Source of the DNA: a virus | Taxonomy: Duplodnaviria; Caudoviricetes | DNA length: 64,000 nt | IMG/VR virus record: IMGVR_UViG_3300047567_000025 | Span: 96,001-160,000 of that record | Strand: one strand, 5' to 3' | Shown here: positions 1 to 55,417 of the stretch, in pieces | Position numbering within the stretch: position 1 is the first letter of the stretch | How the letters are laid out: each line of letters opens with the position of its first letter | Notes under the pieces: model-generated | Seen by the model: the letters and a program-made list of their open reading frames with translations, nothing else | Database searches by the model: none | Told to the model about the DNA's origin: nothing | Translations under genes and position numbers: made by a program

Positions 1-725
1 TCTGATTTGACATATAACTTGTCGAATTCAGTATATATTTTGTCAAATATTTTGATATAATAAATGCCAAACTTTTTACATGTATTCTTCATCATGGAAT
101 CTTTACGATGCTCAATATCTCGATTGTGTATCATAAATGACTCATTAAATCCAGATTGTTTAATTTCGACCTCCAGATTTAGCGATGGTATGTAAAAGTC
201 AGGAATGTATAGATGCTGTGTACCATCTTCCCACTTGTACCAATAATTATTCGGAGATGGTGCTATTATATCAGCAGGAGACCAGTTAAGCGCATGTAGA
301 TGATCAAGAAAATCTACTTCATATGTGCCTATTACACGAAATTTATACTTTTCATTCCAAATATAATCATGTGCATTCGCATGGTTATATATCATTTTTC
401 GTTGCATATCAGCATCATTTAGCATATGCTCTTTACCATATACTTTCATCATTCGTTCTTTCATCATTCTCGTGTATGCCTCTTTACATGCTGGATCATC
501 ACATATTCTTTCGTATTTTAATGATTCTGTATTAAAATGAACATAATGCTTATGACATTCTGTACATAATCTGCCAATAGGCTTATTTACCAAGAGTGAA
601 TATGCAAACTCCAGAGGATCACATTCATCTGGTATTTGATCATTATGTTTCATAGCAATATGATTGCAATATTTTTGCTTATCGTTAAATATCATAGAGC
701 AAAAATAGCATCTTGTATTACGCAT
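1..725 (-). CDS. C2H2-type zinc finger + PD-(D/E)xK (TnsA-like) endonuclease; partial, runs off the window start
   Basis: Not in the ORF track. Manual translation from ATG 725 (SD GGAGG at 734-738, minus strand): MRNTRCYFCSMIFNDKQKYCNHIAMKH... later YIPDFYIPSLNLEVEIK; open to the window edge. Confidence 0.7.
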   Translation of the reverse strand, partial: MRNTRCYFCSMIFNDKQKYCNHIAMKHNDQIPDECDPLEFAYSLLVNKPIGRLCTECHKHYVHFNTESLKYERICDDPACKEAYTRMMKERMMKVYGKEHMLNDADMQRKMIYNHANAHDYIWNEKYKFRVIGTYEVDFLDHLHALNWSPADIIAPSPNNYWYKWEDGTQHLYIPDFYIPSLNLEVEIKQSGFNESFMIHNRDIEHRKDSMMKNTCKKFGIYYIKIFDKIYTEFDKLYVKS

Positions 726-756
726 ATTATGTACCTCCAATATATATATGATTGAT

Positions 757-770: not shown

Positions 771-832
771 CGTATGTATGGCAATTAATCAAAAAAAATA
801 AAAAATAATCATAGTATTATTGTATAGCTTTA

Positions 833-1710
833 ATTAGCTTACTTTTTTAGCTTATTAATCTTTAATTATCTAATATCTTTAATTACTCATCCTTCTTTCA
901 CTGATGTAATTATCACTATATTACATCAACCCCTACATTATAAAAATATATGTTTAGAAAATAAAAAAATAGAAATAGAAATAGAAATGTAATATTAGCT
1001 TATTTAGTTTTAATTAGTTAATATCACAACTTTTCCATTGATGTAATTATCACTATATTACATCAACCCCTACATTATAAAAATATATGTTTAGAAAATA
1101 AAAAAATAGAAATAGAAATAGAAATGTAATATTAGCTTATTAGCTTATTAATCTTTAATTATCTAATATCCTCACCTCTTTCACTGATGTAATTATCACT
1201 ATATTACATCAACCCCTACATTATAAAAATATATGTTTAGAAAATAAAAAAATAGAAATAGAAATGTAATATTAGCTTATTTAGTTTTAATTAGTTAATA
1301 TCACAACTTTTCCACTGATGTAATTATCACTATATTACATCAACCCCTACATTATAAAAATATATGTTTAGAAAATAAAAAAATAGAAATAGAAATGTAA
1401 TATTAGCTTATTAAGCTTATTAGCTTATTAATCTTTAATTATCTAATATCCTCACCTCTTTCACTGATGTAATTATCACTATATTACATCAACCCCTACA
1501 TTATAAAAATATATGTTTAGAAAATAAAAAAATAGAAATAGAAATGTAATATTAGCTTATTAGCTTATTAGCTTATTAATCTTTAATTATCTAATATCCT
1601 CACCTCTTTCACTGATGTAATTATCACTATATTACATCAACCCCTACATTATAAAAATATATGTTTAGAAAATAAAAAAATAGAAATTAAGAAATAGAAA
1701 TGTAATATTA
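833..1710 (-). repeat. tandem array 1: six 131-149 bp promoter-hairpin units
   Basis: Invariant core TGATGTAATTATCACTATATTACATCAACCCCTACATTATAAAAATATATGTTTAGAAAATAAAAAAATAGAAAT starts at 902, 1039, 1185, 1316, 1465, 1613. Confidence 0.97.
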
Positions 1711-11254: not shown

Positions 11255-11260
11255 TTTTCA

Positions 11261-11343
11261 AATATATATTATTAATATGAATAAAATTATATTATAAAGC
11301 CATCACAGAGCTGTATAATCTGTGAAGAAAGAGGTATATTATG
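11261..11343 (+). promoter_or_regulatory. early promoter + conserved hairpin-SD leader (copy 1)
   Basis: AATATATATTATTAATATG followed by AAAGCCA-TCACAGA-GCTGTATAA-TCTGTGA-AGAAAGAGGTATATTATG. Confidence 0.8.
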
Positions 11344-11706
11344 AAATATACAAATGAAGTGTTCAAAGGTAATATAATAGAAAAAACATATGAAGATACT
11401 GTTTTCGATAATTGTTGTTTTGAAGGTGTTCTCTTTATAGGTGTTGAATTTAAAAACTGTCGATTTTTAAATTCAACATTTGAACAATGTACATTTGAAA
11501 ATTGTACTATAACAGCTACACGATGGACAAGTTGTACATTAAGTGAAGTCGATTTTGAGTTTACATTAGTTTATTATTCTAATTTTGATGAAGATTGTAA
11601 AATTAATGAAAACGTATTATTTATGTCAGGATGGGATGATAACATAAATAATGATATTGAAGAAATATTTGGAAATCTTCAATCACAAGTTAACATATGT
11701 AAATGA
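11341..11706 (+). CDS. pentapeptide repeat protein
   Basis: 5-residue periodicity: TVFDN CCFEG VLFIG VEFKN CRFLN STFEQ CTFEN. Confidence 0.85.
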   Translation: MKYTNEVFKGNIIEKTYEDTVFDNCCFEGVLFIGVEFKNCRFLNSTFEQCTFENCTITATRWTSCTLSEVDFEFTLVYYSNFDEDCKINENVLFMSGWDDNINNDIEEIFGNLQSQVNICK

Positions 11707-24916: not shown

Positions 24917-26038
24917 ATGAAAATAACAGTTATAAAGAAACAATCAAAAATGCATCATATCAATAAAGGGTTTGGCTATGATAACTTTTTCGATCTTGGT
25001 TGTTCACTTAATTTGAATAAAAGTATGTTTGATAACGTTGACAAAGAACAGGAACAATGTGAAGACATGAAGAAACAATCAAAAATGCATCATATCAATA
25101 AAGGGTTTGGCTATGATAACTTTTTCGATCTTGGTTGTTCACTTAATTTGAATAAAAGTATGTTTGATAACGTTGACAAAGAACAGGAACAATGTGAAGA
25201 CATGAAGAATGAAGAATACAGTAATGGTCATTCAACCATGCTGACAATAGCAAGGTATCCGCTGTGCGATTATGACAATGTAATTACTATCGATGAACAG
25301 TGCACACTCAATCAATTGATATCTACGATAAAAAGTAATCTACCAACATTATGTAGTGATTATATTCAATCATCAATTATAGTGTCAAATGAAAAACATA
25401 AACAGATATTCTATCTTATCGTAAATCCAGCTATTGGTGCTGCATTATATGCATTATATGATGAGCTATACTATATTAATGACGCTAAATGGGAAGAAAT
25501 CAAGCGTGATAAGTTTAAAATAAAGCCAAACAAGGTTGCTGACAAATCTGAATGTATTGACAAATTAGCTGCAAGAGCATTGAAATCCTATAATGATTTT
25601 ATGATGAAAAATTGGGTTGATACAATGATGAAAGTCAATGATAAATGTGATACGGATGTTCTTAAATTCATTTATCAGTTCAAACAACGTGGCAAGATCG
25701 GATCGACTGATAATATAATACATGATGTTTTCAGACATGGTTATTGTTGGCATTTTGCACATATACTAAAATCAACATTTGGTCGAGGCGAAGTTTGTAT
25801 CGCATATCCTTTTGGACATTTTGTCTGGAAAGATGTCAATGGCGTTGTGTATGATATTGAAGGTGAATATGGTCATGACTCGGAAGCATGCTGCTATATA
25901 CCCGAAGATTATCTACCAGATGAAGTTCTTGATACTTTTCGACATATACCGGATTGTGATGAGCACTATACAACCAAAGAAGAAATTGAAGCAATTGAAA
26001 AGCGATACGTACATGATAGATGCAAGAAAGTGAAATGA
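24917..26038 (+). CDS. multi-domain hypothetical protein with an internal 45-aa duplication
   Basis: SD AAGGAGG; middle domain paralogous to the C-terminal part of 29315..30028. Confidence 0.65.
   Translation: MKITVIKKQSKMHHINKGFGYDNFFDLGCSLNLNKSMFDNVDKEQEQCEDMKKQSKMHHINKGFGYDNFFDLGCSLNLNKSMFDNVDKEQEQCEDMKNEEYSNGHSTMLTIARYPLCDYDNVITIDEQCTLNQLISTIKSNLPTLCSDYIQSSIIVSNEKHKQIFYLIVNPAIGAALYALYDELYYINDAKWEEIKRDKFKIKPNKVADKSECIDKLAARALKSYNDFMMKNWVDTMMKVNDKCDTDVLKFIYQFKQRGKIGSTDNIIHDVFRHGYCWHFAHILKSTFGRGEVCIAYPFGHFVWKDVNGVVYDIEGEYGHDSEACCYIPEDYLPDEVLDTFRHIPDCDEHYTTKEEIEAIEKRYVHDRCKKVK
24935..25209 (+). repeat. exact 135-bp tandem duplication
   Basis: 24935..25069 repeated at 25070..25204, bounded by AAGAA microhomology. 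Confidence 0.95.
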
Positions 26039-28918: not shown

Positions 28919-29051
28919 AATAAGATTATTAGATGATGATAATGCAGTATACATTGATATTGATCAGCTCGAATATAAAAGTCATATAAATATTATTTAA
29001 TGGAGCCCATATGGGCTCCATAATAATGTTTTTTATTATTTTGAATCTTTA

Positions 29052-29317
29052 AATATATATTATTAATATGAATAATAATCGAGCAAGAATACATAAATAT
29101 GAAAGAAGGTGTTATTATGAATGAAATTAGTGAAATTGTCATTATTGACACAACAGATTCAATCATTATAAATGATTAATTTTTAAATACTCAACCACAA
29201 ATATATCAAACCAACTTGCTCGATTATTATATAATGAGTAAAATATTTAAATATAATAAATTTATTATTAAAGCAATCACAGAGCTGTATAATCTGTGAA
29301 GAAAGAGGTATATTATG
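29052..29317 (+). promoter_or_regulatory. early promoter, 16-bp inverted repeat enclosing a mini-ORF, then hairpin-SD leader (copy 2)
   Basis: Promoter motif 29052..29070; IR arms 29072..29087 and 29215..29230; leader 29270..29317. Confidence 0.75.
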
Positions 29318-30028
29318 ATACAAAATGATTTATTCAATGAAAACTGTGCTACTGTTAGAAGTTGCATATCAGTTGCAGCAAATGCAATAAACTGCTTTTA
29401 TTTATGCTATAACATTTCGGGAAGTAATTCGGAACGATATGTTCTTAGAAGAATATCTGACAATATTGCTATGTATGAAATATATTCACGTATTTCTAAT
29501 AATGGTAGCATTCGTCTCGCAGTAAAAGAACATGGATGTGATAAGAATCGCATGGTTATCAAAATTAATAGTAAAAAAGAATTGAGTATTACAACGTATG
29601 ACGTGCCACTGTCAAACGATGATATCAAAATCATCGAATATATACAAAAATATCACAAATATCATATAAAAGGAGATTATAATATGATGAAAGATATAAA
29701 TTGCATTGATAGTGAAGCTGACCATACAGAAAAATTAATGATCATTCATCAGCCGATAATAATTCGAAACAATGTAGTTTTCATCGATGCACATTGTTCA
29801 TTATCTGAACTTATTTGTGCATTAAAAGACAACGTTGTAACGTTAGGCTTTGACGTTGGGCTTGACATAATTTCAATTGGTAATTCAGCAATTACTCAAA
29901 TATTTGTAATCGATGCTTCTAATATTAATGCTATTAAATTATACATTGGAGATGATCCTAATAGCATTGACGACGCTCGATGGGAACAGATCAAACGTAA
30001 TACGTTTGAAATAAATACAAATAAATGA
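29315..30028 (+). CDS. hypothetical two-domain protein with an internal in-frame start at 29684
   Basis: Conserved leader upstream; internal AAAGGAG SD before ATG 29684; C-terminal domain paralogous to part of 24917..26038. Confidence 0.6.
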   Translation: MIQNDLFNENCATVRSCISVAANAINCFYLCYNISGSNSERYVLRRISDNIAMYEIYSRISNNGSIRLAVKEHGCDKNRMVIKINSKKELSITTYDVPLSNDDIKIIEYIQKYHKYHIKGDYNMMKDINCIDSEADHTEKLMIIHQPIIIRNNVVFIDAHCSLSELICALKDNVVTLGFDVGLDIISIGNSAITQIFVIDASNINAIKLYIGDDPNSIDDARWEQIKRNTFEINTNK

Positions 30029-36349: not shown

Positions 36350-37630
36350 TTATTTGATTTTTAATGTTTGTTTAATAATATAAATGATAATAGGTGTCCA
36401 TAAATATATCTCTTTTGACATAGAATTGTCAAATAATTGGTCACCTGTATAGAGTGACAATTTGCTTATATCAGTAATCTTGCCATGAATAAAGTCATGA
36501 ATTATTGATATATAATCGTATCGCTTTAACTTGTAATGCGAAATACATTCATTTTTAAGAGCACAGCATGGACAGTCACATATATGACATTGCCGTGTGT
36601 CATATTCATTCTCAAGTATTGAATGCACTTCAAATGGAAAAAATCTATCGCATCGTTCTGAATTACACCATGCATCGTCAGGTATCATTACGTCAACATC
36701 AGCACCATATCGAGCAAATGATGAATCAGTGTAATCATATCCTTTCATAGTATGATATTTAAATGTCTCTAGATATCTCAACGGTGCATCACGCTCAATC
36801 CATTTATATGGTGATTTCTGATACAACATGTCGATTCGTGGATCATTAACTTTGTTATTGTTTAATACAATATTACCATTAGAATCATCACGAATCATAA
36901 TACCGTGTTTTCCCATAAATGTATTTCCACATAAATCAAACAGTGATACTCCATCTAGATGACAAATAAAGCAGTTATGTATTTTGTCATAAAACTGTGC
37001 TATATATGATTCAATCATATCATTTGTCATTGATATCAATCTTGATCGGAGTTCATAATCTTCTTTACCAATTATAGGTGTTAGATCATTACCGCCTATC
37101 GTTTGAAGATCCATTACATATTCACTGACAGTCTGTCTTTTTAGATGATTAATGTCATCTTCATTTGTTGAGAATAAGCTATATGAAATCTTATACGATC
37201 CATCTGTATTAAGGCCATCCTGCATAACTTGTGTAACACGCATTAAATGATTCATTCGTAAATGATTTACTATAAAAAAATCATTCTCTCGTGGCATTAC
37301 AGTACCGGGTATTATAAAAGCATCGCCATTTAAATTATAATTCCGAACTTGTGTTGTAGATGCATTTCCTTCTTCAGGATTTAATGGTGAAAAACCCAAC
37401 AGAATCATATTTTCAATTCTATTATATCTCAACGGGGAGTCTGCACCAAGTATCTGATAAGCATCTCCCATTCCTAATGATGTTGATGTTTGCGCATCAT
37501 TACAACTGAAATATGTCACAATGGTTCTTCCACTGCCGGTATATTTATTTATACGGCTATGTAGAAACTTATCATATTTATACATTTGGGAATCAACTAA
37601 TGCATTCTCATCATATATCAAACCAGCCAA
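36350..37630 (-). CDS. putative virion structural protein
   Basis: 426-aa ORF heading the tail operon; late motif AAACCGCTTCATAA at 37683..37696. Confidence 0.55.
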   Translation of the reverse strand: MAGLIYDENALVDSQMYKYDKFLHSRINKYTGSGRTIVTYFSCNDAQTSTSLGMGDAYQILGADSPLRYNRIENMILLGFSPLNPEEGNASTTQVRNYNLNGDAFIIPGTVMPRENDFFIVNHLRMNHLMRVTQVMQDGLNTDGSYKISYSLFSTNEDDINHLKRQTVSEYVMDLQTIGGNDLTPIIGKEDYELRSRLISMTNDMIESYIAQFYDKIHNCFICHLDGVSLFDLCGNTFMGKHGIMIRDDSNGNIVLNNNKVNDPRIDMLYQKSPYKWIERDAPLRYLETFKYHTMKGYDYTDSSFARYGADVDVMIPDDAWCNSERCDRFFPFEVHSILENEYDTRQCHICDCPCCALKNECISHYKLKRYDYISIIHDFIHGKITDISKLSLYTGDQLFDNSMSKEIYLWTPIIIYIIKQTLKIK

Positions 37631-37704
37631 TTAAATCAGTCCTTTCTTCTGTAATTTGAATAGTGCATAGTTCTATCCATGATTATGAAGCGGTTTCACT
37701 ATAC

Positions 37705-38422
37705 TACATTTCTATTTCTATTTTTTTATTTTCTAAACATATATTTTTATAATGTAGGGGTTGATGTAATATAGTGATAATTACATCAATGGAAAAGTTG
37801 TGATATTAGATAATTAAAGATTAGAAAGCTAAGTAAGTAAGCTAATATTACATTTCTATTTCTATTTCTATTTTTTTATTTTCTAAACATATATTTTTAT
37901 AATGTAGGGGTTGATGTAATATAGTGATAATTACATCAGTGGAAAAGGTGTGATATTAGACTAATTAAAGATTAGAAAGCTAATAAGCTAATATTACATT
38001 TCTATTTCTATTTTTTTATTTTCTAAACATATATTTTTATAATGTAGGGGTTGATGTAATATAGTGATAATTACATCAGTGGAAAGAGTTGTGATATTAG
38101 ATAATTAAAGATTAGAAAGCTAAGTAAGCTTAATAAGCTAATATTACATTTCTATTTCTATTTCTATTTTTTTATTTTCTAAACATATATTTTTATAATG
38201 TATTGATGTAATATAGTGATAATTACATCTGGAAAAGTTGTGATATTAGATAATTAAAGATTAGAAAGCTAATAAGCTAATATTACATTTCTATTTCTAT
38301 TTTTTTATTTTCTAAACATATATTTTTATAATGTAGGGGTTGATGTAATATAGTGATAATTACATCAGTGAAAGAGGTGAGGATATTAGATAATTAAAGA
38401 TTAGAAAGCTAAGTAAGCTAAT
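37705..38422 (+). repeat. tandem array 2: five 137-152 bp units (inverted relative to array 1)
   Basis: Hairpin TGATGTAAT-ATAGTGATA-ATTACATC(A) at 37762, 37912, 38052, 38204, 38341; unit 4 lacks GGGG. Confidence 0.97.
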
Positions 38423-38443
38423 ACTACAGAAAGAAGGTATCAT

Positions 38444-39643
38444 TTGATTATGAATGAAGAACAGAAATATGTTACACCAATAGAAGAGCTTGATAAGATA
38501 ATCGAGCAAATAGATATGGGTATTGAGCCAATGATGACTGATCAGATGTCACTGGAAGTAAAGCTTCGTTATAAAGAACTGCAGAATGAATTATTTGACG
38601 AAGATGATTCGAATGATGTTGATGTTCAGCGACATCGTGAAATGATGAAAGAACATATCGCAAAAAAGAAAAGAGAAGCAACAAAACAAGATGTATTGAT
38701 AATCTCATTATCAGATGAACAGAAAAGAAAACTTAGAGCTGATATGGAAACCTCTATAGTTCGTAGTAATCCCAATATACAATATAACATACCTGATGAA
38801 AAACTATATTCATCAGAGGAATTACGAATTGTAAGACAGAAATTATCTAGAATCAAAAATTGCTATTACAATCAGATCGATTACATTAATGCGGTTAGTA
38901 TTGTGAGAGAAGCAATTGATTATTCATTACGTAGTGACTATCCTTGGATGTCTAGAGAGGAAGCTGTCAAAGCTTTTAATTCTGGCGAAATAAAATTCTC
39001 TTATTGTAACATGCCTAAATTATTTATTAACTATCAAACGCAGATAACTGATCCTGAAATACTTAAGGGAATTGTAACAGGAGACGTTATTCTCAAGGAC
39101 AAAAATGATACGGCTGAATTTAAGAGTAAGAAAAACGAGAAGTGTAATCCAATTAATGCCGAGTATAATATAACTGGCGATACAGAATATAACGAAATGC
39201 TCAGCCTTCATAAACAGGGCTATGATACTCCTATGTCTGTTGTTATTAAATCAAAATCAACGGTATATAATAGATATGCATTACCATCATCAAATCGATT
39301 TGCTATTGGTAATAATAAAGATAATATTAACGATAAATCGATATTGTTTGATTGGTCTAAGCCTGGAGCAGGCAAAGATTATTATAATTTTATTCATAAT
39401 AAGAAATATCAAGTATCAGAAATAATTCATGACATTAATGATGATAATGATGGCTTATTAAATAATATTGTATCAACCAATGCTATACAATTTCTTGGCA
39501 GTATGACTAATGATCCAAATAAGTATACAAATAGCTATAATGATAATAACTTCATATCGACATCATTACATGTTAATCAAGAAGCAGCACAGGTTGAGCA
39601 TGATATTTTAAATGCAATAAGAGCTAATAATCCAACGAAATAA
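38444..39643 (+). CDS. hypothetical protein (399 aa)
   Basis: Long ORF with SD GAAGG immediately after array 2. Confidence 0.7.
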   Translation: MIMNEEQKYVTPIEELDKIIEQIDMGIEPMMTDQMSLEVKLRYKELQNELFDEDDSNDVDVQRHREMMKEHIAKKKREATKQDVLIISLSDEQKRKLRADMETSIVRSNPNIQYNIPDEKLYSSEELRIVRQKLSRIKNCYYNQIDYINAVSIVREAIDYSLRSDYPWMSREEAVKAFNSGEIKFSYCNMPKLFINYQTQITDPEILKGIVTGDVILKDKNDTAEFKSKKNEKCNPINAEYNITGDTEYNEMLSLHKQGYDTPMSVVIKSKSTVYNRYALPSSNRFAIGNNKDNINDKSILFDWSKPGAGKDYYNFIHNKKYQVSEIIHDINDDNDGLLNNIVSTNAIQFLGSMTNDPNKYTNSYNDNNFISTSLHVNQEAAQVEHDILNAIRANNPTK

Positions 39644-39844: not shown

Positions 39845-40012
39845 CATTTTTTCTATGCTGAGAGAGAGAGAGAGAGAGAGTATAGTTTGAATTGATTATT
39901 CCTATTATTTTAATTTTTCAAATATATATTATTAATATGAATAAAAGAATAGCAATCAATATTTAAAAGCAATCACAGAGCTGTATATCTGTGAAGAAAG
40001 AGGCATATTATG
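39845..40012 (+). promoter_or_regulatory. cassette left end: promoter + hairpin-SD leader (copy 3), including a (GA)10 tract
   Basis: Homologous to 54526..54706 over about 170 bp. Confidence 0.85.
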
Positions 40013-40971
40013 ATGAATGATTATTTAACAATAGTAAATGGAGTAGTAATTGATTGCAATACTACTGATGTAACTGATGTTGTTATTCCTGATGGAGTAA
40101 CATCTATAGGAGACCGTGCTTTTAGATTTCATAAAAGTCTTGAATCAATTACAATCCCTGATAGCGTTACATCTATAGAAAATAGTGTTTTCTATAGATG
40201 TGAAAGTCTCAAAAGCATTGAAATCCCCAATAGCGTAACAACTATTGGGAACTATGCTTTTGCATATTGTAAAAGCCTTAAAAGCGTTATCATTCCTAAT
40301 AGCGTTAAAACTATAAAAGAGGGCTCATAGATGTGAAAGTCTCAAAAGCATTGAAATCCCCAATAGCGTAACAACTATTGGGAAATGCTTTTGCATATTG
40401 TGAAAATCTTAAAAACATCACAATCCCTAATAGTGTTACACATATTGAGGGTAGTGCTTTTGAAGGTTGCTTTAATCTTGAAAGTATTATTATTCCTAAT
40501 AGCGTTACATCTATAGAAAATAGTGTTTTCTATAGATGTGAAAGTCTCAAAAGCATTGAAATCCCCAATAGCGTAACAACTATTGGGAACTATGCTTTTG
40601 CATATTGTGAAAATCTTAAAAACATCACAATCCCTAATAGCGTTACATCTATAGAAAATAGTGTTTTCTATGAATGTGAAAGTCTTGAAGAAATTACAAT
40701 CCCTAATAGTGTTACAACTATAGAAGATATGGTGTTTGAAGGTTGCTCTAATCTTAAAACAATTACAATCCCTAACAGCGTTAAGCTTATAGGAGACGGT
40801 GCTTTTGCATATTGTAAAAGTCTTAAAAGCATTACAATCCCTAATAGCGTAACATCTATAAACATTGAAGCTTTCTATGGCCGTGCAAATGTCGTGATTC
40901 ACTGTTATAAAAATTCATATGCAGAGGAATATGCAAAGAAAAATAATATTCCTTACAAGATTATTGATTAA
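40010..40971 (+). pseudogene. BspA-type leucine-rich repeat (LRR_5) protein with two frameshifts
   Basis: 23-aa repeats IP(N/D)SVT.I...AF..C.SL.SI continue through three frames, with breaks near 40325 and 40383. Confidence 0.8.
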
Positions 40972-40987
40972 AATAACAAACAATAAT

Positions 40988-41035
40988 AAAGCCATCACAG
41001 AGCTGTATAATCTGTGAAGAAAGAGGTATATTATG
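40988..41035 (+). promoter_or_regulatory. hairpin-SD leader (copy 4), with no promoter of its own
   Basis: AAAGCCATCACAGAGCTGTATAATCTGTGAAGAAAGAGGTATATTATG identical to copy 1. Confidence 0.85.
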
Positions 41036-41242
41036 ACGAACTCTTTTAAAATAGCATTAGCTATTACAGGCGGAGTTGTTGCGGTTGAAGCAACAATATC
41101 AAAAGCATATAGACTTGGAAAAGTTAAAGGCGCGGAAGAATTCTCAATATACATTAAGAACAAAGAAGCTCAAGAAAGACAGCAGGAAGAAGAATACGAA
41201 GACTTAGACAGAACTTTGAAGAATATACATTCATTAAATTAA
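41033..41242 (+). CDS. small protein with N-terminal hydrophobic segment
   Basis: Preceded by the conserved leader; IALAITGGVVAV followed by a charged tail. Confidence 0.65.
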   Translation: MTNSFKIALAITGGVVAVEATISKAYRLGKVKGAEEFSIYIKNKEAQERQQEEEYEDLDRTLKNIHSLN

Positions 41243-41303
41243 TAAATAAAAAAATAAAAGTAGGAACGGGGGCTGTTGCCCCCGTCACCGAAATTATTTT
41301 TTT
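41241..41303 (+). terminator. cassette right end / terminator
   Basis: AATAAATAAAAAAATAAAAGTAGGAACGGGGGCTGTTGCCCCCGTCACCGAAATTATTTTTT; near-identical to 55353..55417. Confidence 0.85.
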
Positions 41304-41305
41304 AT

Positions 41306-44300
41306 TTAAATAATACGAATTGGTTTAGTATTAGGAAATGTCGAATGCAGCCACATGCCATTATATGATTTATCAATAATGACATATACACCGGTCTTTA
41401 TAAATGATATAATTTTCACAGTATTATCAATATCATCAATATTTCCATCTGATTTTTTAGATATATATAATGTAAAATATCGAGAGCTAAATCCAGACGC
41501 AAATATTACAAAATCATTAGTATCGCTTCTGACATTGAGTTTGATATGCTGGTTATTTATTAATTCCATTCTATCGCGATGAGTTGTTAAAAATAAAGGA
41601 TTTGTTGTCTCTTCATACCGCCATATATTATCAAATAATTTAATAATATCTATATTTGGTATGTCGACTAATCCTAACGATTGAACTGTCTCGTGATTTA
41701 AAGAAATGCCATTTATCGATGGAATATTATATAATGTATTATAGTCAATAGATCCTTCAGGATCATTATATGACAACCCCATCAATATGTCATCTTCGAT
41801 ATCTCGGTTGTTTGTATCTGATATAATATTACCAATATAATCCTGTATTGGATGATGCTGATTTGCATTAAACATATATCGGATATCTTGTTTAGTTATA
41901 TTGGAATTACTTAGTAAAGCCAATTTATATGATGAAAAGGCTTTACCATTCAAATCAACATAAACGTTACCTTTCCGTATGATATTGGAATCCTTCGTAT
42001 CATCAACAAGTTCAACTAATTCAAAATTGTGTAATGACCTGAGGTTGCATAGCTGAAGAGTTGTTGGTGATAATATAATCAAGTCTTTGCTATTATTAAT
42101 ATATCGCCCATTTATCCAAAATTCATATCTATCGCGTGATAATGGTGTTGGTATATATCCAGTAACATCAATGAATCCATTTTCAGGAATTATATGTGCT
42201 GAATATCTGCAAATTCCAATATAGTTAGACTTAATTAATTTAACATCAGGATTTATAGATGTATCTATAGACAATCTGTTTGTATGTGAGTTTCTGCGAA
42301 TATCCGATAATGGCAATCTGATTTTATTTTTTGTATCGAAATAATATTCGAATGGATTAAATATAGCGCTGTTGTTAATCATAACAACATCACTGGAAGT
42401 CTTCTCATATTTATTGTTAAATATGATTTTTGTTTGCTTGCTTGTATCGATTGTATTATCATCATGCGGTACAAATATGCATTCGTTTGGTATTTCTTTA
42501 TGTATTGCCAATGAACTTGGTATCCGCATCCATGCACCTTTATCATCAATCAAGTTTTCCTTATCAAATGATATTTTTACCGTTATAATACCGCCACATG
42601 TTTTATACATATCATCTTTGAAAACAGTGCATATGAATTCACCTGCAACTACTTTGTCCATTGATGAGTTCGTTATCGATATTATTTGTTTATCATCTAT
42701 CAAAGCAGTTACTGCTTCAAACATAATGTTTCCTATATTACCATCATAAACACTACTTTCATTATTTTGAATACATAGTAATTTAATCGTGCGGCCATGT
42801 ATAAATGAATCGATTGGTTGATTGATAGTAACATCATACTTTGGAATTTTAAATTGCATCGTAGACGTTACGTCTTTAAAAGGCAAACGTACATACATAT
42901 CAAATTTTGTGAAATCATATGTAACGCCATTATTATAAATAGACACATCACATAATCTAATCACAGGTGCATTTGTATATTTACCAGTTCTTCTCGGGCG
43001 TATTATATGAAATGAATTTGCAATTGATATATCAGTCGGCGGATTATAACTATCAAAAATATATGATTCATTACAATCAAAATGCTTCCTTATCCGAATA
43101 TTATCGTAAGGATTAGCAGATGATGTTATATCATTTAATGAGTATACTGATTTAAAACGAACATCACATATATTATTAGATGAATGTATATCGTCAAATA
43201 CTTTTGACGACTTATATGAAATATATATTAACAATTCTTTTGACGGAACGAATCCAGATTTTGGGATAATTGATATAGAATGTAATACATTGTTTGTTGA
43301 ATAACTATCACATTCATCGATTTTGACAGCATTAACCATGTTTGTGCTAACTGAATACATATTTGGATTTATCCAGCACTTATGCTCCCAATCATATATG
43401 TATAATTCCAATTTGTCTGTAAATGGTATATCTCCGATATTTGACATAAATGAATGCGACAATTTAGCTCTGCCATTGGCAATATAAACAAGTGCGTCTT
43501 CATATGCACGAACATTATACCATGTTGTCGGTGATTCTAGTTGCTTGATATATGAGTCCATTCGTTTCTGAAACTCTATTTCATGTTCCTTGCCACGCTG
43601 GATTGAGTCAATCTGATTAATAATTCTTTCTCTTTCATAGTCTGTAGTAGCTCGCTCAAGTTGCTCTTTATATAAGACAAGTGCTCTTTCAAAATCAGGT
43701 ATCTTTGCTTCTGAACTACTCTTATACTGCTCAAATGTTTCAATTTCCTGATCCCATACAGCATGATCATTTGGCTCTTCTCTTAAAATAGGATATTTCT
43801 CCGGATTTGTCATAGTATCAAAGTCATGGTTTATCATTTTGATAGTAATTTCATCATCAATGTTATTTATACATCCATTGCCAATATAAATAAATCTATG
43901 TTGCTTATGTTCATCGTCGATAATATTATTTGGTACGAGAGAATTGAAAATCCATTGTAGACGGGTATATACATATGGCATATTGTTTTGCACATATATA
44001 GGATCTCCTGGGACAGAATAAGCATCCTTAACATTCTCATCTGAAATATCAACGTTAATATTTGCTAACGAGTTCGAATAAGTATTGAATGACGTATCGT
44101 TATATTCATCCAGGAAGTTTGATATATTATCAGCAATAATTGAGCATTTAATATTTGTTGTTAAGTAGCGTGTTATTTCATCTTCATCGTCAATACTAAA
44201 CCATTTACATTTTTTAGAATCAACGATTGCTTCAACAAATCCTTTATTTATTGAATGATCTATTGCTGTTATTATTATCGGAAATATATAGCGTTTATCA

Positions 44301-47300
44301 TCCGTAGAGACATATACATGTTGTCCAACATGATATCTACTACCTATAGAAGTAATAGATCCGTTTTCATTAAATGGTATATGAAATACTTGTACTGGCT
44401 TAAAGAATATTTTTTTTGAAACATTTTTTCCAAATTCTTGATTTATAATTCCATTAATAGTCTGATTATTAATAAAGATACGATCGATTGATCCTGGAAG
44501 CAATGACTTTGGCTGTAATATCATCTCAGACGTGTGATCGAGCTGTGTAAAATGATTACCTGCAAGCATTTCATAATTCATATTGCTTGATTTTTTATTA
44601 ACAATTAATCCATCCGGATTTATATCAAATGACTCATGTATATTTTCAATATCAATTTTAATATTGCTAATATTTAAAATCTGTTTAAATTTACCAACGA
44701 CTGTTGCTGACGATGATACCTTGCTAAATGTCAAAGAGCAATCAATTGTTTCTATAGTATTACCAGTTGCATCAATGATATTTAACTTGCATCCAGATAT
44801 TGAATCTCCATTAAAGAATGCATATTCGCATATTTTTATTAAAGAATTAATATAATATTTCCCATCGATCAATTCAACTATTGGCTTGAATATCATAGTG
44901 ATATCACCAATTAAACTTGTTCCGACAGGTGGATAAAAGTGACTATCCCTTGGTAATGTTATTGATGCAAATATTGGCTTTACTTGATAGCTTAGTTGAC
45001 TATCATATGTGATTCTATCAAGGGTATACATGCTAAATATATATTTTTTAAATATTGAATCACAATATTTGACGAGAGGTACTATGTGAGAATAGTGCAA
45101 TGACGTTGTTAAAGATGATAGTAAATTAATCATATCATCTATTACAGGTATTCTTGTATCCTGATATGCTTTACATGATTGACTCAGCTGATCGAATGTT
45201 TCTGCATTAATACCATCTATGATTATTGTGCTATTTGAAATAGCATTACCTAGATTTTTGATCAATTCAGAATCGATCGAATTAAGCCACTGCTTATACT
45301 GGTAAGGATTCATACATGTATTTATCTTCTTTAATGTTAGATATATCTTTCGTGCATAATCCAATATATAATTATCAAATCCTTTGTTTATGTATATTTG
45401 CTTCAGTATTGATAATATACGATTGAAGAATATTATAACCGAGATAGTCTTTCCATTAAATGTACATGTGCCTATTGTATCAATTTTACTTGTCATATCA
45501 TTAAATAATGATATTATTGGATTATTTGTTATGATAGACTCGACAATATTTGATATGGTATAATATTCAAATGAAGTTTCATGATCATGATAATATTTTG
45601 CAATTGCATAAATATGCTTTTGCAATGTTTCAATACCACTTTCGATACGAGAGCGCTGGTTATATGAAATATTATAGTTCGTTTGTAAATCACTGATGTA
45701 ATCATAAACAGAAGATATATATGACATTATTAATTTTGCAATATAGATATCATTATGATATGATTTTGTTTGATATCCATGTGATGATATATCTCTATAT
45801 TGCACGAAATATTGTTTGTCAATGTCAGCATCTGCTATTAACGGATATGATATATTATTGTCATATGAATTAAAAGTATATCTATACAATGATTTTATCG
45901 TCGGCGCGCCTGTATTATCAGTTATGATAGGTAGACCGTAGAACATATATTGACCACTAATCTCTGGTAATTTTGATGAATCAATATCAATTGTATTAGG
46001 AGCTAAAGAAAATTGAGAATAATCGATATCAAATGAATCCTTTCCATCAAACAGTTGACTGATACAGATATCAGAATATCTATTGCTAAATTTATTATGC
46101 GTTAACGAATTAAGAAAAAACGATTGAAGTTTATCTTCATTATCATATAACATGGATAATGTATAATAAAGAAAATTAATCGCAAATGGAGCACGATCGT
46201 CATCTTCACCCGCATGAATATTATCAGATGTAATGTTAGATACTTCGTAATTGATATCAGATGGATAAATATCAATGATGTCATCACCTGATATTTTTCT
46301 TTTAAGTATTTTAGAAAGTACCTGTGTACATGTTTCACCATCATATTTATTATATAACATCTTTGATATCTTGAGCAATTTATTCTCGGCATACCAATAA
46401 CGGATGTATCCAATATGATTATTTACTTCTGAATAGAATGCATCAAAATCTAATACGGTGTTCATATCAAGCGGATTTACATCTTTCTCTATAGGAGATT
46501 TTGTATCAGTATATAGCACGAAGAATTTAAATATTTCATCACCAGCAAGATTTTCATCAATGTAGAATGCGTTTTGAATACCATTGAAGTGTTTAATCAA
46601 AGGCGATGCAAATAGCCAACATTCTTCAGTACGACTATATTGCATTGTAATAAAGCATTGTTCTGTTACAGGACGATTGAAACGAGTGAAATTTTCATTT
46701 ACAAAATAATTATTTGATAAATTACTTAAATTTGCGAAGTTTGCTAATGTATTATTTCTGAATGGCTTTGTTATTGTATTAACAAATATCTGATAATTAT
46801 TATCGTAGAATTCATCAATAACATATTTCTGAAGGTCGGTAATTGATGTAACCTTGCGAAGCTCATCTATGTTATCCAATAACGTTGCAAACAATGTGAT
46901 TGATTCAGTTGATACTAACGATGTTAATATACTACCTTGCAGATAATCATTGTAACATTTCGAAAGGTCATCATAAATATCATTTAAAGGATATATTATG
47001 TCTTCATACAGATGATTATCATCTAATGAATTATAATGTATAGCACTTCCGATATTTCTAAATGATGAATCATATTTTATCATTCGATTGTACATGTCGA
47101 GACAATTTAAAATAATTTTAAATGATAAATTGATTGGTCTATCTAGTACTATAGGAGGTGTGCATACTTCAAGTGCATTAATATTGTTTGCTGAGCTAGC
47201 AACTATCTTATTTCCATCAACATCAACGACTCTACTTTCATCGTCTGTGAATACATGTCGTGAATCTATAATATCATAATAATTACAAGCAGGATATACA

Positions 47301-48262
47301 TTAGGTACTTCATGCAAATATCTAAATATATATATTACGGCAGTAACTGTTTCTGATTTATAATGAGATATATCATCCAATGTTCGTTTTTGTATATTAT
47401 TAATAGATAAGCCTGAATCATTAAAGATGCCATAGTTCGGAACACTTGGTACTGTTTTCGAGAAATCTTTATCATATATATTTATCAGACATTTCATATC
47501 TGACACATTAATATTATCATTAAGATTATTCAATTGCGAAAATGGAATCTTTCCTTCCAAAATATAGGATGAATCTATATCATATGATCTAACAAGAGAT
47601 TCATCCAGCTTATATATAATAAAATCAACATCAGCAGAATATTTCCAGCCAATCTTAAACTTAAAGCCTTTGTCATCAATCGCAATCATGCAATCGTTAC
47701 ATATAAATCCATTTACGGTACATAATATTGTGAATCCCAATATGTCTGATATATCGCTCATCACAAATTCATTTATTGGAATAAAATATTCATTTTCTGT
47801 AGTATGCATTTTGCATAACTTTTGACGAATAAATTCATCTCTATCTCCAAAATGTAATTGATTAAAAGGGACATCAATCATATAGTAATGAGCCGATTTA
47901 TCCATATACACATGATCTCGATCCATATTATTACAATGAAACATGACTGCATGCGTATTTACCAACATACTACTCATTGCATTTTTTAAAGAGATATCGT
48001 ATGTTTCAATTAATGATTGATTTATATCCTCGAATGTATAATTTGATCGACTCATTAAGTCTATAAGTCTATCAAAGCCTGCGTTGTTTCCTACAACACC
48101 AAATGGTTGCTCACTTAATAATTGTGATGACATGTCTATGAGTGTTTTATAACGTTCACCAACATCAATAGCTTTAGTATCATTATATGATTCTTTACCA
48201 TCACGAATACCTGTCAAATACCGATGTTGCTCATAAAACCATTTATTGTAGTTCATTATCAT
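41306..48262 (-). CDS. very large putative virion structural protein (2318 aa)
   Basis: Uninterrupted 6.96-kb ORF; SD GGAGAGGA; late motif AAACGAATCAGTAA at 48296..48309; no catalytic motif recognised. Confidence 0.6.
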   Translation of the reverse strand: MIMNYNKWFYEQHRYLTGIRDGKESYNDTKAIDVGERYKTLIDMSSQLLSEQPFGVVGNNAGFDRLIDLMSRSNYTFEDINQSLIETYDISLKNAMSSMLVNTHAVMFHCNNMDRDHVYMDKSAHYYMIDVPFNQLHFGDRDEFIRQKLCKMHTTENEYFIPINEFVMSDISDILGFTILCTVNGFICNDCMIAIDDKGFKFKIGWKYSADVDFIIYKLDESLVRSYDIDSSYILEGKIPFSQLNNLNDNINVSDMKCLINIYDKDFSKTVPSVPNYGIFNDSGLSINNIQKRTLDDISHYKSETVTAVIYIFRYLHEVPNVYPACNYYDIIDSRHVFTDDESRVVDVDGNKIVASSANNINALEVCTPPIVLDRPINLSFKIILNCLDMYNRMIKYDSSFRNIGSAIHYNSLDDNHLYEDIIYPLNDIYDDLSKCYNDYLQGSILTSLVSTESITLFATLLDNIDELRKVTSITDLQKYVIDEFYDNNYQIFVNTITKPFRNNTLANFANLSNLSNNYFVNENFTRFNRPVTEQCFITMQYSRTEECWLFASPLIKHFNGIQNAFYIDENLAGDEIFKFFVLYTDTKSPIEKDVNPLDMNTVLDFDAFYSEVNNHIGYIRYWYAENKLLKISKMLYNKYDGETCTQVLSKILKRKISGDDIIDIYPSDINYEVSNITSDNIHAGEDDDRAPFAINFLYYTLSMLYDNEDKLQSFFLNSLTHNKFSNRYSDICISQLFDGKDSFDIDYSQFSLAPNTIDIDSSKLPEISGQYMFYGLPIITDNTGAPTIKSLYRYTFNSYDNNISYPLIADADIDKQYFVQYRDISSHGYQTKSYHNDIYIAKLIMSYISSVYDYISDLQTNYNISYNQRSRIESGIETLQKHIYAIAKYYHDHETSFEYYTISNIVESIITNNPIISLFNDMTSKIDTIGTCTFNGKTISVIIFFNRILSILKQIYINKGFDNYILDYARKIYLTLKKINTCMNPYQYKQWLNSIDSELIKNLGNAISNSTIIIDGINAETFDQLSQSCKAYQDTRIPVIDDMINLLSSLTTSLHYSHIVPLVKYCDSIFKKYIFSMYTLDRITYDSQLSYQVKPIFASITLPRDSHFYPPVGTSLIGDITMIFKPIVELIDGKYYINSLIKICEYAFFNGDSISGCKLNIIDATGNTIETIDCSLTFSKVSSSATVVGKFKQILNISNIKIDIENIHESFDINPDGLIVNKKSSNMNYEMLAGNHFTQLDHTSEMILQPKSLLPGSIDRIFINNQTINGIINQEFGKNVSKKIFFKPVQVFHIPFNENGSITSIGSRYHVGQHVYVSTDDKRYIFPIIITAIDHSINKGFVEAIVDSKKCKWFSIDDEDEITRYLTTNIKCSIIADNISNFLDEYNDTSFNTYSNSLANINVDISDENVKDAYSVPGDPIYVQNNMPYVYTRLQWIFNSLVPNNIIDDEHKQHRFIYIGNGCINNIDDEITIKMINHDFDTMTNPEKYPILREEPNDHAVWDQEIETFEQYKSSSEAKIPDFERALVLYKEQLERATTDYERERIINQIDSIQRGKEHEIEFQKRMDSYIKQLESPTTWYNVRAYEDALVYIANGRAKLSHSFMSNIGDIPFTDKLELYIYDWEHKCWINPNMYSVSTNMVNAVKIDECDSYSTNNVLHSISIIPKSGFVPSKELLIYISYKSSKVFDDIHSSNNICDVRFKSVYSLNDITSSANPYDNIRIRKHFDCNESYIFDSYNPPTDISIANSFHIIRPRRTGKYTNAPVIRLCDVSIYNNGVTYDFTKFDMYVRLPFKDVTSTMQFKIPKYDVTINQPIDSFIHGRTIKLLCIQNNESSVYDGNIGNIMFEAVTALIDDKQIISITNSSMDKVVAGEFICTVFKDDMYKTCGGIITVKISFDKENLIDDKGAWMRIPSSLAIHKEIPNECIFVPHDDNTIDTSKQTKIIFNNKYEKTSSDVVMINNSAIFNPFEYYFDTKNKIRLPLSDIRRNSHTNRLSIDTSINPDVKLIKSNYIGICRYSAHIIPENGFIDVTGYIPTPLSRDRYEFWINGRYINNSKDLIILSPTTLQLCNLRSLHNFELVELVDDTKDSNIIRKGNVYVDLNGKAFSSYKLALLSNSNITKQDIRYMFNANQHHPIQDYIGNIISDTNNRDIEDDILMGLSYNDPEGSIDYNTLYNIPSINGISLNHETVQSLGLVDIPNIDIIKLFDNIWRYEETTNPLFLTTHRDRMELINNQHIKLNVRSDTNDFVIFASGFSSRYFTLYISKKSDGNIDDIDNTVKIISFIKTGVYVIIDKSYNGMWLHSTFPNTKPIRII

Positions 48263-48311
48263 TATCTAATCATCCTCTCCTGTTATATCAAAGACTTACT
48301 GATTCGTTTAT

Positions 48312-48613
48312 ATTTCTATTTCTATTTTTTTATTTTCTAAACATATATTTTTATAATGTAGGGGTTGATGTAATATAGTGATAATTACATCAATGGAAAA
48401 GGTGAGGATATTAGACTAATTAAAGATTAGAAAGCTAAATAAGCTAATAAGCTTAATAAGCTAATATTACTATTTCTTAATTTCTATTTTTTTATTTTCT
48501 AAACATATATTTTTATAATGTAGGGGTTGATGTAATATAGTGATAATTACATCAATGGAAAAGTTGTGATATTAACTAATTAAAGATTAGAAAGCTAAGT
48601 AAGCTAATATTAC
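48312..48613 (+). repeat. tandem array 3: two units (period 162 bp)
   Basis: Same core as arrays 1 and 2; hairpins at 48366 and 48528. Confidence 0.97.
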
Positions 48614-48643: not shown

Positions 48644-49003
48644 ATGTATGATTTGACGTTTAAAGTTAAGCAACATGGAACATATCAGGGAATGACGTAT
48701 ATTATATTTTCATCGGCATCCGGATACTATAGATGCTATATAGGAATTCCCCAAAAGCAATGGCATGATGAAATCATCTATACTAAATTTAATAAAAGAA
48801 TGACTATAGGTGATAGATTTCTCAAAAGGCAATATCCCAATTTATCATTAAAAGATATTGATAATATTTGGATGTGTTTTGTTGCAAATAGTGATACTTC
48901 ATATGATAATTATGATAACACAAAAGATTTTGACCGATATATGTTGCATGAATGTCATGATGTGATAAATCGTATCATAGATGTTACCGATAATGCACAT
49001 TGA
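48644..49003 (+). CDS. hypothetical protein
   Basis: SD AAGGAG directly after array 3; terminator follows. Confidence 0.6.
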   Translation: MYDLTFKVKQHGTYQGMTYIIFSSASGYYRCYIGIPQKQWHDEIIYTKFNKRMTIGDRFLKRQYPNLSLKDIDNIWMCFVANSDTSYDNYDNTKDFDRYMLHECHDVINRIIDVTDNAH

Positions 49004-53586: not shown

Positions 53587-53821
53587 CCCATTCGTATGCA
53601 TTTCGGATGTAACTGGAAATATGGAGAAATTAAACACTGTCATATTTAATCCAATTCTTTCAAAAGAGCATAATAAAATCGTAATAAAAAAAGAATGCAA
53701 TTTACGATATGATCTCATGTTGTCGGATGAGCAACTAGAGTCATTAGTAAATAATTCTGTTAATGATTTTATCACAGAATTACACGGAATTATAGTTCGG
53801 CATAAAGCAAATAGATCATAA
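53564..53821 (+). CDS. hypothetical protein (TTG start)
   Basis: SD GGAGGTG before TTG 53564, in frame with ORF 53531..53821. Confidence 0.5.
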   Translation: MKTTITYSPFVCISDVTGNMEKLNTVIFNPILSKEHNKIVIKKECNLRYDLMLSDEQLESLVNNSVNDFITELHGIIVRHKANRS

Positions 53822-53831
53822 AATAAAAAAA

Positions 53832-53861
53832 TTATATACGGGGATTTATTCCCCCGTATAT
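53832..53861. terminator. bidirectional terminator
   Basis: TATACGGGG...CCCCGTATA between convergent genes. Confidence 0.75.
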
Positions 53862-53876
53862 AATAATATTTACTGT

Positions 53877-54467: not shown

Positions 54468-54525
54468 TGTATCACTTCCTTTCATATTAATAATATATTT
54501 TTCAAATCGCAAAAAAATATTATTG

Positions 54526-54706
54526 CATTTTTTCTATGCTTAGAGGGAGCGTAAAAGAAGGAATGGTTGGATTGATTATTCCTATTATTTTAACTTTTCA
54601 AATATATATTATTAATATGAATAAAAGAATAACAATCGATCAATAAATCAATATTTAAAAGCCATCACAGAGGTGTATTAATCTGTGAAGAAAGAGGTAT
54701 ATTATG
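54526..54706 (+). promoter_or_regulatory. cassette left end: promoter + hairpin-SD leader (copy 5)
   Basis: Homologous to 39845..40012; stem TCACAGA/TCTGTGA kept, loop changed to GGTGTATTAA. Confidence 0.85.
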
Positions 54707-54952
54707 ATGAACGTTTTTAAAAGAATTGAGACACTTGAAAAGCTTACAGAAATCAACACAGCTTCGAACGCTATAACAGCGCTGATTGTAACTACAGGTG
54801 CTGCAGTTACGATTGTTTCATCAGTAGTAAAAGGCGGAATGGCTATTACAAAGGCTATAAAAAATAAGAAACTTGCTAAGGAAAATAGCAAAGGTACAGA
54901 AAAAGACAATAGCAAAGGTACAGAAGAAAAGATCGATCAATCAAAAGAGTAA
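54704..54952 (+). CDS. small membrane-associated protein
   Basis: Conserved leader; hydrophobic AITALIVTTGAAVTIVSSVV plus Lys/Glu tail. Confidence 0.65.
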   Translation: MMNVFKRIETLEKLTEINTASNAITALIVTTGAAVTIVSSVVKGGMAITKAIKNKKLAKENSKGTEKDNSKGTEEKIDQSKE

Positions 54953-55025: not shown

Positions 55026-55361
55026 ATGATTAATGAAATTATGAATGTGGCCGGACTTGCCCTAAGTGCATCTGCTAGTTGTTTAAACTCAATTAGCTTA
55101 GGTAAAAATGCAAAAAAGATAGCAGAGCTTTCTGATAGAGTGACCTCTCTTGAAAAGAGAGATCTTATCATGGAGGGTTGCTTCGTAGGCTTTGGTGCAG
55201 CAGCATTAACTGCTGACATAATCAATAAGCGTAAGCAGAATAAACTTAAAAAGAGGATAGATCTTCTCGAATCAACTGTAGAGGTACTTCAAGGAAGCTG
55301 TGTTAAGCAGTCTGACTTGAAGGCATCTACAGATGCAATTATATCAGCTATCAATAAATAA
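55026..55361 (+). CDS. small protein with hydrophobic segments and coiled coil
   Basis: SD AGGAGG; second cargo gene of the cassette. Confidence 0.65.
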   Translation: MINEIMNVAGLALSASASCLNSISLGKNAKKIAELSDRVTSLEKRDLIMEGCFVGFGAAALTADIINKRKQNKLKKRIDLLESTVEVLQGSCVKQSDLKASTDAIISAINK

Positions 55362-55417
55362 AAAAATAAAAGTAGGAACGGGGGTAATAACCCCCGTCAC
55401 CGAAATTATTTTTTTTT
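55353..55417 (+). terminator. cassette right end / terminator
   Basis: Same as 41241..41303 except the loop and a covarying closing pair (T-A versus C-G). Confidence 0.85.

Follow-up and report, generated by a model that had tools for sequence, protein, structure and literature searches.

Introduction

The early promoters used by the virion RNA polymerase (RNAP) of phage AR9 were defined by transcript mapping as AAATATATATTAT-N6-G(+1), and they lie at gene junctions, with virion genes on the opposite side (Lavysh et al., 2017, PMC5312081). One deviation from this early consensus can silence a promoter (PMC5312081). Here we analyzed a window of 64,000 nucleotides (nt), bases 96001-160000 of the 212,263-bp IMG/VR virus record IMGVR_UViG_3300047567_000025, which comes from an uncultivated phage. 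We were particularly interested in array A3 of this window, a series of tandem units, each of which combines a promoter-like core, a hairpin and a Shine-Dalgarno (SD)-like purine tract without a start codon. The unit is probably an early promoter, joined to the initial ~100 nt of its 5′ leader and tandemly amplified (1-6 copies) before six early-type operons.

Strong early promoters placed in tandem are familiar from T7 (A1-A2-A3) and from the early regions of T5 and SPO1. In Firmicutes, the 5′ stem-loops of aprE and ermC act as 5′ stabilizers. The STAB-SD sequence of cryIIIA is reportedly another Firmicute 5′ mRNA stabilizer (Agaisse & Lereclus, 1996), and a polypurine stabilizer is said to belong to the early RNA of the Bacillus phage SP82 (Hue et al., 1995). 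Stabilizers of this STAB-SD/polypurine kind are characterized by a strong SD complement in the 5′ untranslated region that has no start codon of its own, and by a longer half-life of the mRNA behind it through binding of 30S subunits. In the phages 201phi2-1 and phiKZ, small RNAs derived from 5′ untranslated regions are produced by premature termination (PMC11512511).

Results

Anatomy and copies of the unit

Tandem Repeats Finder (TRF) detected five head-to-tail units at 37701-38417 (period ~140, score 1093), with a unit length of ~140-150 nt. The array lies between a minus-strand virion gene and a plus-strand gene encoding 397 amino acids (aa) (Table 1). From 5′ to 3′, each unit is composed of a T-rich tract with ATTTCT repeats, a core ending in TATAAT, GTAGGGGT, the hairpin, the purine tract, ATATTAG, a tail and ATATTACAT. 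The hairpin is formed by the inverted repeat TGATGTAAT / 9 nt / ATTACATCA, and three ATGTAAT-type half-sites are present in each unit. The purine tract reads GAAAGAGGTGAGG in unit 5 and GGAAAAG(T/G)TGTG or GGAAAGAGTTGTG in units 1-4; next comes ATATTAG, replaced by ATATTAA in six units from other parts of the genome. No ATG, GTG or TTG was found in the units at ribosome-binding site (RBS) distance 3′ of the purine tract, and the ATG or GTG just after the hairpin sits 5′ of this tract. All strings quoted in the initial annotation, which had described repeat units of a hairpin and an SD-like tract lacking a start codon, were present, and five such units make up A3. Mini open reading frames (ORFs) within the unit (ATG/GTG-GAA-AAG... 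and AUU-AGA-UAA) were judged incidental, having no RBS of their own or a non-canonical start.

Across the record, the unit occurs in 19 copies, distributed over six arrays of 2, 6, 5, 2, 3 and 1 units, and a 20th copy of the promoter part stands alone behind the three-unit array. All six arrays are aimed at an ORF that starts 25-110 nt past the last unit, and divergent-gene junctions host four of them. The genes behind the arrays appear to be of early type, as one is nuclease-like (phrog_15137) and one primase-like (phrog_19847); the other four have no family match.

Relationship of the core to AR9-type early promoters

The record, estimated to be 76% complete and with a GC content of ~31%, encodes an RNAP beta/beta′-like gene (phrog_2986, E 2.6e-60), a subunit of the phiKZ/AR9-type multisubunit RNAP. 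By tblastn, its nearest cultured homologues (~30% identity) are found in Listeria phage LPJP1, Bacillus phages Goe21 and BpSp, Staphylococcus phage S6 and Yersinia phage phiR1-37. The window thus appears to be part of an AR9/PBS1-like jumbo phage genome.

When the unit core was compared with the 13-nt AR9 consensus AAATATATATTAT, 11 of 13 positions were matched, identically in 20/20 copies, and in every copy TATAAT is followed by the G of GTAGGGG, six nt past the core. The core is present in 20 exact genome copies, with no copy carrying one or two mismatches elsewhere in the genome, and its A-to-T change at position 12 recurs in a promoter of the related phage G002. The exact AR9 consensus forms a second promoter class of ~10 copies in the genome, located 5′ of what the initial annotation had called the gene leader, hairpin (9-nt loop)-AGAAAGAGGT-ATATTA-TG, which is real and has five copies in the window (families D11/D13/D15). 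Exact-consensus sites with the conserved T-rich tract upstream lie at window positions 11254-11283, 29045-29074, 39914-39943 and 54594-54623, and ~6 more are present in the genome. Among relatives and cultured phages, the AR9 consensus was counted 17 times in G001, 13 in G003, 23 in Goe21, 9 in LPJP1 and 21 in S6, with 0-1 in the controls.

A BLAST comparison of the unit with four related phage records matched the promoter part only. In alignment A2, the T-rich tract, core and start region were matched in five single-copy promoters of relative G001 that have the canonical core. One of these, L031, is situated at the syntenic junction, where it is flanked by homologues of the two genes that border A3. 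The sharing of tract, core and start region with G001, including the syntenic L031, argues that the unit core is an ortholog of the AR9-type virion-RNAP early promoters of related phages. The exact-consensus sites show that a virion-RNAP promoter code is common to this uncultivated phage and Bacillus phage AR9, though the RNAP subunits are only ~30% identical. As in the AR9/PBS1 early promoters (PMC5312081), the units occur in a multisubunit-RNAP phage, have an extended AT-rich core with a G after 6 nt, and precede early genes opposite virion genes, in a genome that also holds the exact consensus. They differ from them in two consensus mismatches, in arrays of up to six where AR9 and all relatives checked have a single promoter or at most two, and in a conserved transcribed part of ~100 nt that is repeated here with the promoter. 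An AR9 late-promoter reading (AACA-N6-TA/G) was rejected: AACA is present in the unit, but its spacing to the purine start misfits.

Variation among the units

All 19 units were compared in alignment A1, where they do not count as independent observations. A 68-nt block comprising the T-run, the core and the whole hairpin with its loop showed no substitution in 17 of the 19 units; of the two others, one has two small deletions and one a variant T-tract. Hairpin 1, loop included, is unchanged in 18 of 19 copies. The strong purine allele, with a 7-nt SD core complementary to the anti-SD typical of Firmicutes, is found in six units (6/19), and two intermediate forms account for 2/19. In the 11 others (11/19) the SD core is gone, either by two G-to-U changes, which give the commonest allele, or by other changes. 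An SD core of at least 6 nt is kept in 8/19 units, and every purine allele retains a GGA triplet. The tail is built of two or three alternative segments with 0-4 TAAGC-type repeats. Neither the array nor the place within it predicts the allele, and the alleles are shuffled differently in the near-identical strains L014, L053 and L054, which come from other samples.

The proposal that variation between units concentrates in the purine tract did not hold, as the tail is equally variable in the number of TAAGC-type repeats and in its alternative segments. The constancy of the 68-nt block beside a polymorphic tail points to selection or gene conversion on the promoter and hairpin. These results indicate that the promoter and hairpin are conserved and that SD complementarity is not.

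Leader origin of the transcribed part

The 20th promoter copy (L012:4692-4800), located before the primase-like gene, is colinear with the unit and leads into a genuine RBS with its ATG. Its counterpart of the hairpin region (L012:4745-4775) is colinear as well but not self-complementary. At G001 locus L045, the promoter is followed by a ~65-nt leader and a real ATG opening a 128-aa ORF; the end of this leader closely resembles the strong purine allele, and the weak allele resembles the mid-leader of the syntenic promoter L031. The purine tract occupies the RBS position of leaders in the same promoter class. In both anatomy and history, the unit therefore looks like a promoter-leader-RBS cassette that has no start codon, and the earlier description of a cassette lacking its start codon is borne out by colinearity with the real RBS and ATG leaders at L012:4692-4800 and G001 L045. 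The perfect hairpin appears to be derived in this lineage, from imperfect leader sequence such as that of L012 and G001. Between the unit tail and the start of the primase-like ORF, the similarity is patchy and below BLAST detection (alignment A5); the tail as a decayed 5′ end of this ORF is a weak lead.

Predicted folds of the unit transcripts

From the predicted start, every unit folds into hairpin 1 (-6.8 kcal/mol alone). In 15/15 units with a T-rich tract behind them, a second helix was predicted, in which GUGAUAUUAG and the purine tract pair with CUAAUAUUAC and the ATTTCT repeats of the next unit. Helix 2 is AU-/GU-rich, comprises ~17-23 bp with a loop of 25-55 nt, and ends directly before U7AU4. 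The T-rich tract is assigned to the promoter because it is present before the first units too; in the folds of internal units it also provides helix 2 with its 3′ strand, as well as the U-run. The last units of A3 and A4 carry neither the pyrimidine strand nor the U-run behind them and continue straight into the RBS of the gene itself, which in A3 is that of the 397-aa gene. The variable tail falls in the helix 2 loop, with both arms invariant.

Both helices were recovered in the RNAalifold consensus, and z-scores against shuffles were mostly -1.4 to -4.2. None of the 26 pairs in the consensus fold covaries (0/26), the copies being too alike. The check by folding and covariation suggested in the initial annotation thus yielded the two helices and no covariation. 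The pairing that it had proposed between the 5′ arm ATGTAATAT and ATATTACAT can form, but the minimum-energy and consensus folds instead pair GUGAUAUUAG and the purine tract with CUAAUAUUAC and the pyrimidine tract. At each internal boundary, helix 2 and the U-run have the look of a weak, AU-rich terminator. A scan for canonical terminators found 0, though GC-rich terminators are used elsewhere in the genome (family D17).

Distribution in other genomes

No Rfam family matched the unit RNA at E<=1, no tRNA or tmRNA was found by ARAGORN, and BLAST against 50,697 phage records gave no array match. Exact-pattern scans of IMG/VR with the hairpin and the core retrieved one near-identical fragment (L014), the remaining hits being chance palindromes or a coding-region coincidence. 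A metagenome scan retrieved two short contigs that belong to a near-identical strain, and each of them breaks off at the repeat. That such strains turn up with contigs interrupted in the repeat speaks for genuine repeats and against an assembly artefact.

In relatives, no arrays were found at the syntenic junction; TRF was empty there, and G001 carries a lone promoter. With a covariance model built from the unit RNA, no significant match was obtained in G001-G004 and Goe21, and no tandem early promoters were found in the relatives or in the three cultured AR9-like phages checked. The six downstream proteins had no match in PADLOC and NCBIfam. Taken together, the amplification and the hairpin appear to be young and lineage-specific.

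Setting of the arrays and neighboring features

The positions of the array parts and of the genes around them are listed in Table 1.

Table 1. Coordinates of the units, arrays, leaders and flanking genes in the window.
Feature	Coordinates	Strand	Basis or remarks
Array A3, five tandem promoter-leader units, periods ~150, 140, 152, 137 nt	37701..38429	+	TRF, sequence, alignment A1
T-rich / ATTTCT-repeat tract of unit 1, 5′ of core	37708..37735	+	Alignment; same tract 5′ of G001 single-copy promoters
Promoter core of unit 1, AACATATATTTT + TATAAT + G, predicted start G at 37754	37736..37754	+	20 exact genome copies
Identical promoter cores, A3 units 2-5	37886-37904, 38026-38044, 38182-38200, 38315-38333	+	
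Predicted hairpin 1 of unit 1, 9 bp + 9-nt loop, -6.8 kcal/mol, +9 to +35 of predicted transcript	37762..37788	+	
Hairpin 1 in units 2-5	37912-37938, 38052-38078, 38204-38230 (last base changed), 38341-38367	+	
Purine (SD-like) tract + ATATTAG of unit 5, strong GAGGUGA allele	38368..38389	+	Aligns with true RBS of L045 (G001) and L012:4780-4800
Weaker purine-tract alleles, units 1-4	37789-37809, 37939-37959, 38079-38100, 38231-38249	+	
Variable tail of unit 1, stop-rich, TAAGC-type repeats, ending ATATTACAT	37810..37853	+	Loop + 3′ arm of predicted helix 2
Array A2, six units, toward nuclease-like gene (3..740, minus strand)	834..1710	-	
Array A4, two units, toward 119-aa gene (48644-49003), divergent from 2318-aa gene	48309..48613	+	
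Gene leader copy, 6-7-bp inverted repeat, 9-nt loop, AGAAAGAGGT, ATATTATG	40960..41036	+	Families D11/D13/D15
Other gene leader copies	near 11268-11344, 29242-29318, 39947-40013, 54639-54707		
Divergent virion gene, head-tail joining-like, late type	36350..37630	-	PF24214 + phrog_3013; homologous gene in G001
Downstream 397-aa gene	38450..39643	+	No family match; 57% / 43% identity in relatives G001 / G002
True RBS AAAGAAGG + ATG (38450) of 397-aa gene	38430..38452	+	Directly after last A3 unit

The pattern GAAAGAGGT-N0-8-ATATTA was found 14 times in the genome, in eight gene leaders and six units, versus 0 in the reversed control. The inverted repeat of the gene leaders holds CACA-N6-TA and an extended -10-like TGTATAAT (11296-11343, 29270-29317, 39966-40012, 40988-41035 and 54658-54706). 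The gene leader hairpin could overlap an AR9-type late promoter (AACA-N6-TA/G) or a host promoter, and the genes concerned would then carry early and late promoters, like the continuously expressed genes of AR9.

Arrays A1, A2 and A6 share an element of ~45 nt between the array and the gene, with two long T-runs followed by GATTAATT and CCATACAT. It is found at window positions 789-830, at L011:6700-6745 (minus strand) and at L010:4050-4095; these are its three genome copies, all after arrays. The 2318-aa ORF from which array A4 diverges (41306-48262, minus strand) had no match in Pfam or PHROG.

Several other repeats were observed in the window. A 135-nt perfect tandem duplication (99% identical) lies within a 373-aa ORF at 24932-25201. 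The coding region for a BspA-type leucine-rich repeat (LRR; PF13306) at 40010-40971 is split into ORFs 40010-40330 and 40378-40971; it contains 69-nt repeats, three of them 100% identical across 58 nt, suggesting recent internal duplication or a broken gene. Just 5′ of the early promoter and BspA-type LRR gene, a (GA)10 microsatellite is located at 39860-39880. (GA)n 11-mers are the commonest 11-mers of the genome (28 occurrences), with many other sites, and the cassette at 54518-54571 that matches the (GA)10 site has a degenerate (GA)n, so that a slippage-prone switch is possible. GC-rich hairpins with A-run and T-run flanks at 41238-41303, 53810-53875 and 55350-55415 are likely bidirectional intrinsic terminators between convergent genes, and they illustrate the canonical terminator form of this genome.

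Discussion

If the unit is an amplified early promoter and leader, transcription would start at the G six bases past the core, by the injected virion RNAP or, given the perfect TATAAT, by the host RNAP. The promoters in series would raise early transcription of the gene behind the array, and the copies would perhaps compensate for a core weakened by its two consensus mismatches. In T7, T5 and SPO1, too, several promoters in series feed one early transcription unit; those promoters vary in sequence and are used by the host RNAP, whereas the units are near-identical repeats that include the leader. The 5′-proximal hairpin, together with the SD tract where this orphan is intact, could protect the transcript in the manner of Firmicute 5′ stabilizers. 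Like these, the units have an SD-like polypurine tract in a 5′ leader with no start codon, adjoining a 5′-proximal stem-loop. The units differ in that their SD core is intact in 8/19 only and is predicted to be paired, and in being tandem, each with its own promoter. The SD-like tract would mainly be what is left of the ancestral RBS. At each unit boundary, the AU-rich helix and U-run may halt a fraction of the transcription, with short leader RNAs as a by-product.

Several points speak against this explanation. The two core deviations from the AR9 consensus mean that recognition by the virion RNAP is not assured; the substitutions may weaken the core, or may hand the promoter to the host RNAP via the perfect TATAAT that they create. 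A scan with the sigma-70 consensus gave promoter-like matches no commoner than in shuffles, a comparison that is uninformative in AT-rich DNA. Single promoters suffice in relatives, and the amplification could thus be neutral slippage. The helix and U-run at unit boundaries could stop most transcripts, in which case the upstream promoters would not feed the gene. Finally, the invariant loop exceeds the need of a stabilizing stem and hints at sequence-specific recognition.

The main rival is a small RNA, which we regard as possible though somewhat doubtful and which would not exclude the amplified promoter-leader. The internal units would then be autonomous genes for one structured early RNA of ~110-130 nt, with a 5′ hairpin, a long helix hiding the SD-like tract, and an end at U7AU4. 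Transcribed from 15-19 copies by the virion RNAP in the first minutes of infection, it might bind or titrate a factor of the host or the phage. Its origin would be very recent, in a promoter-leader-RBS cassette that lost the start codon, and only the last promoter would serve the gene. The position of helix 2 directly before the U-run in all 15 units with a T-rich tract behind them, the z-scores, and the confinement of tail length variation to the helix 2 loop between invariant arms are all consistent with such an RNA, as is the direct passage into the gene of the last A3 and A4 units, which have no pyrimidine tract or U-run. Giant phage 201phi2-1 makes eight of its 11 sRNAs (small RNAs) by termination just past the start site (PMC11512511). 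The 201phi2-1 and phiKZ RNAs share with the units a start site, a possible stop within ~100-130 nt, and a place 5′ of a protein gene in a jumbo phage, but they are single-copy, with mapped 3′ ends and canonical terminators, whereas the units are multicopy and have a predicted AU-rich helix. On the other hand, the lack of covariation, the AU-/GU-rich helix with its long loop in a genome that uses GC-rich terminators, and the empty terminator scan argue against it, and the promoter by itself accounts for the T-rich tract. With no match of the covariance model in the four relatives or Goe21 and none in Rfam, any such RNA would be very young.

An amplification without function, in which slippage or unequal-crossover products were homogenized by gene conversion and only the gene-proximal copy matters, seems unlikely to us. 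It would account for arrays confined to this lineage, for copy numbers of 1-6 between arrays, for variant segments shuffled among units and near-identical strains, and for the microsatellite-like ATTTCT and TAAGC repeats inside the units. It fits poorly with six independent loci that have the same module, all in productive orientation, with zero substitutions in the 68-nt core beside a polymorphic tail, and with the otherwise compact genomes of giant phages. More improbable is an element that works as DNA, in which the inverted repeat and a third ATGTAAT copy bind a phage protein (an early-gene repressor or initiator), or in which the tandem promoters, with their G- and purine-rich start, prime R-loop origins as in T7 and T4. 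The invariant hairpin loop and arms would suit a protein site, as would the three half-sites per unit; four arrays lie at strand-divergence points, one beside the nuclease-like and one before the primase-like gene, and the transcript would open with GUAGGGG and then reach the purine tract. However, the strict co-orientation with the downstream gene and the fusion to its RBS fit promoters and not origins, and the element is missing in relatives that have the same replication genes. Moreover, ATGTAATAT outside the arrays is no commoner than its reversed control, GC skew in the window merely tracks gene strand, and no candidate binding protein was identified.

The initial annotation had also suggested that the SD tracts without start codons are decoys that titrate 30S subunits or a purine-binding regulator. 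Six units do have the 7-nt perfect SD core (GAGGUGA) and lack a suitably spaced start codon, a GGA triplet is found in every allele, and the many copies are probably transcribed early and strongly. We nevertheless consider decoys very improbable, as an SD core of at least 6 nt is left in only 8/19 units, having been lost in 11/19, and the folds predicted for the internal units all have the tract paired. In the few, non-independent units available, this is the outcome that the initial annotation had named as refuting, purine-tract variation random with respect to anti-SD complementarity. Alleles are shuffled among arrays and strains without positional pattern; the homology of the tract to an ordinary RBS means that its SD likeness needs no new function. 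A role in defence or anti-defence, likewise proposed, found no backing in PADLOC matches of the six downstream proteins, in an Rfam family or in a toxin-like neighbor. A type III toxin-antitoxin array of the ToxI kind (~36-nt repeats, one promoter, an endoribonuclease toxin) was rejected, since the units measure 140-150 nt with a promoter each, and the six downstream proteins are mutually unrelated and gave no PADLOC match. A CRISPR or integron cassette array was rejected too: the units abut with no unique inserts, and the neighbors are virion, nuclease-like and primase-like genes. The suggested cargo-less recombination slots do not agree with the absence of a recombinase context and with units that carry promoters in place of recombination sites and in all cases adjoin the start of a gene.

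Giant phages of the AR9/phiKZ type bring their own RNAP, and the early promoters of such phages are generally regarded as single, rigid sites. Here, one promoter-leader module is multiplied up to six-fold at six loci, its promoter and hairpin constant while the former RBS decays. If the copies add up, they would represent a natural way of tuning early gene dosage when the injected polymerase is limited in number, and may provide parts for expression systems built on such polymerases. If the units terminate, they would be the first multicopy small-RNA gene family seen in a jumbo phage, and would show a non-coding RNA in the act of arising from an mRNA leader. In both cases, the start sites and 3′ ends predicted here can be tested by metatranscriptome mapping.

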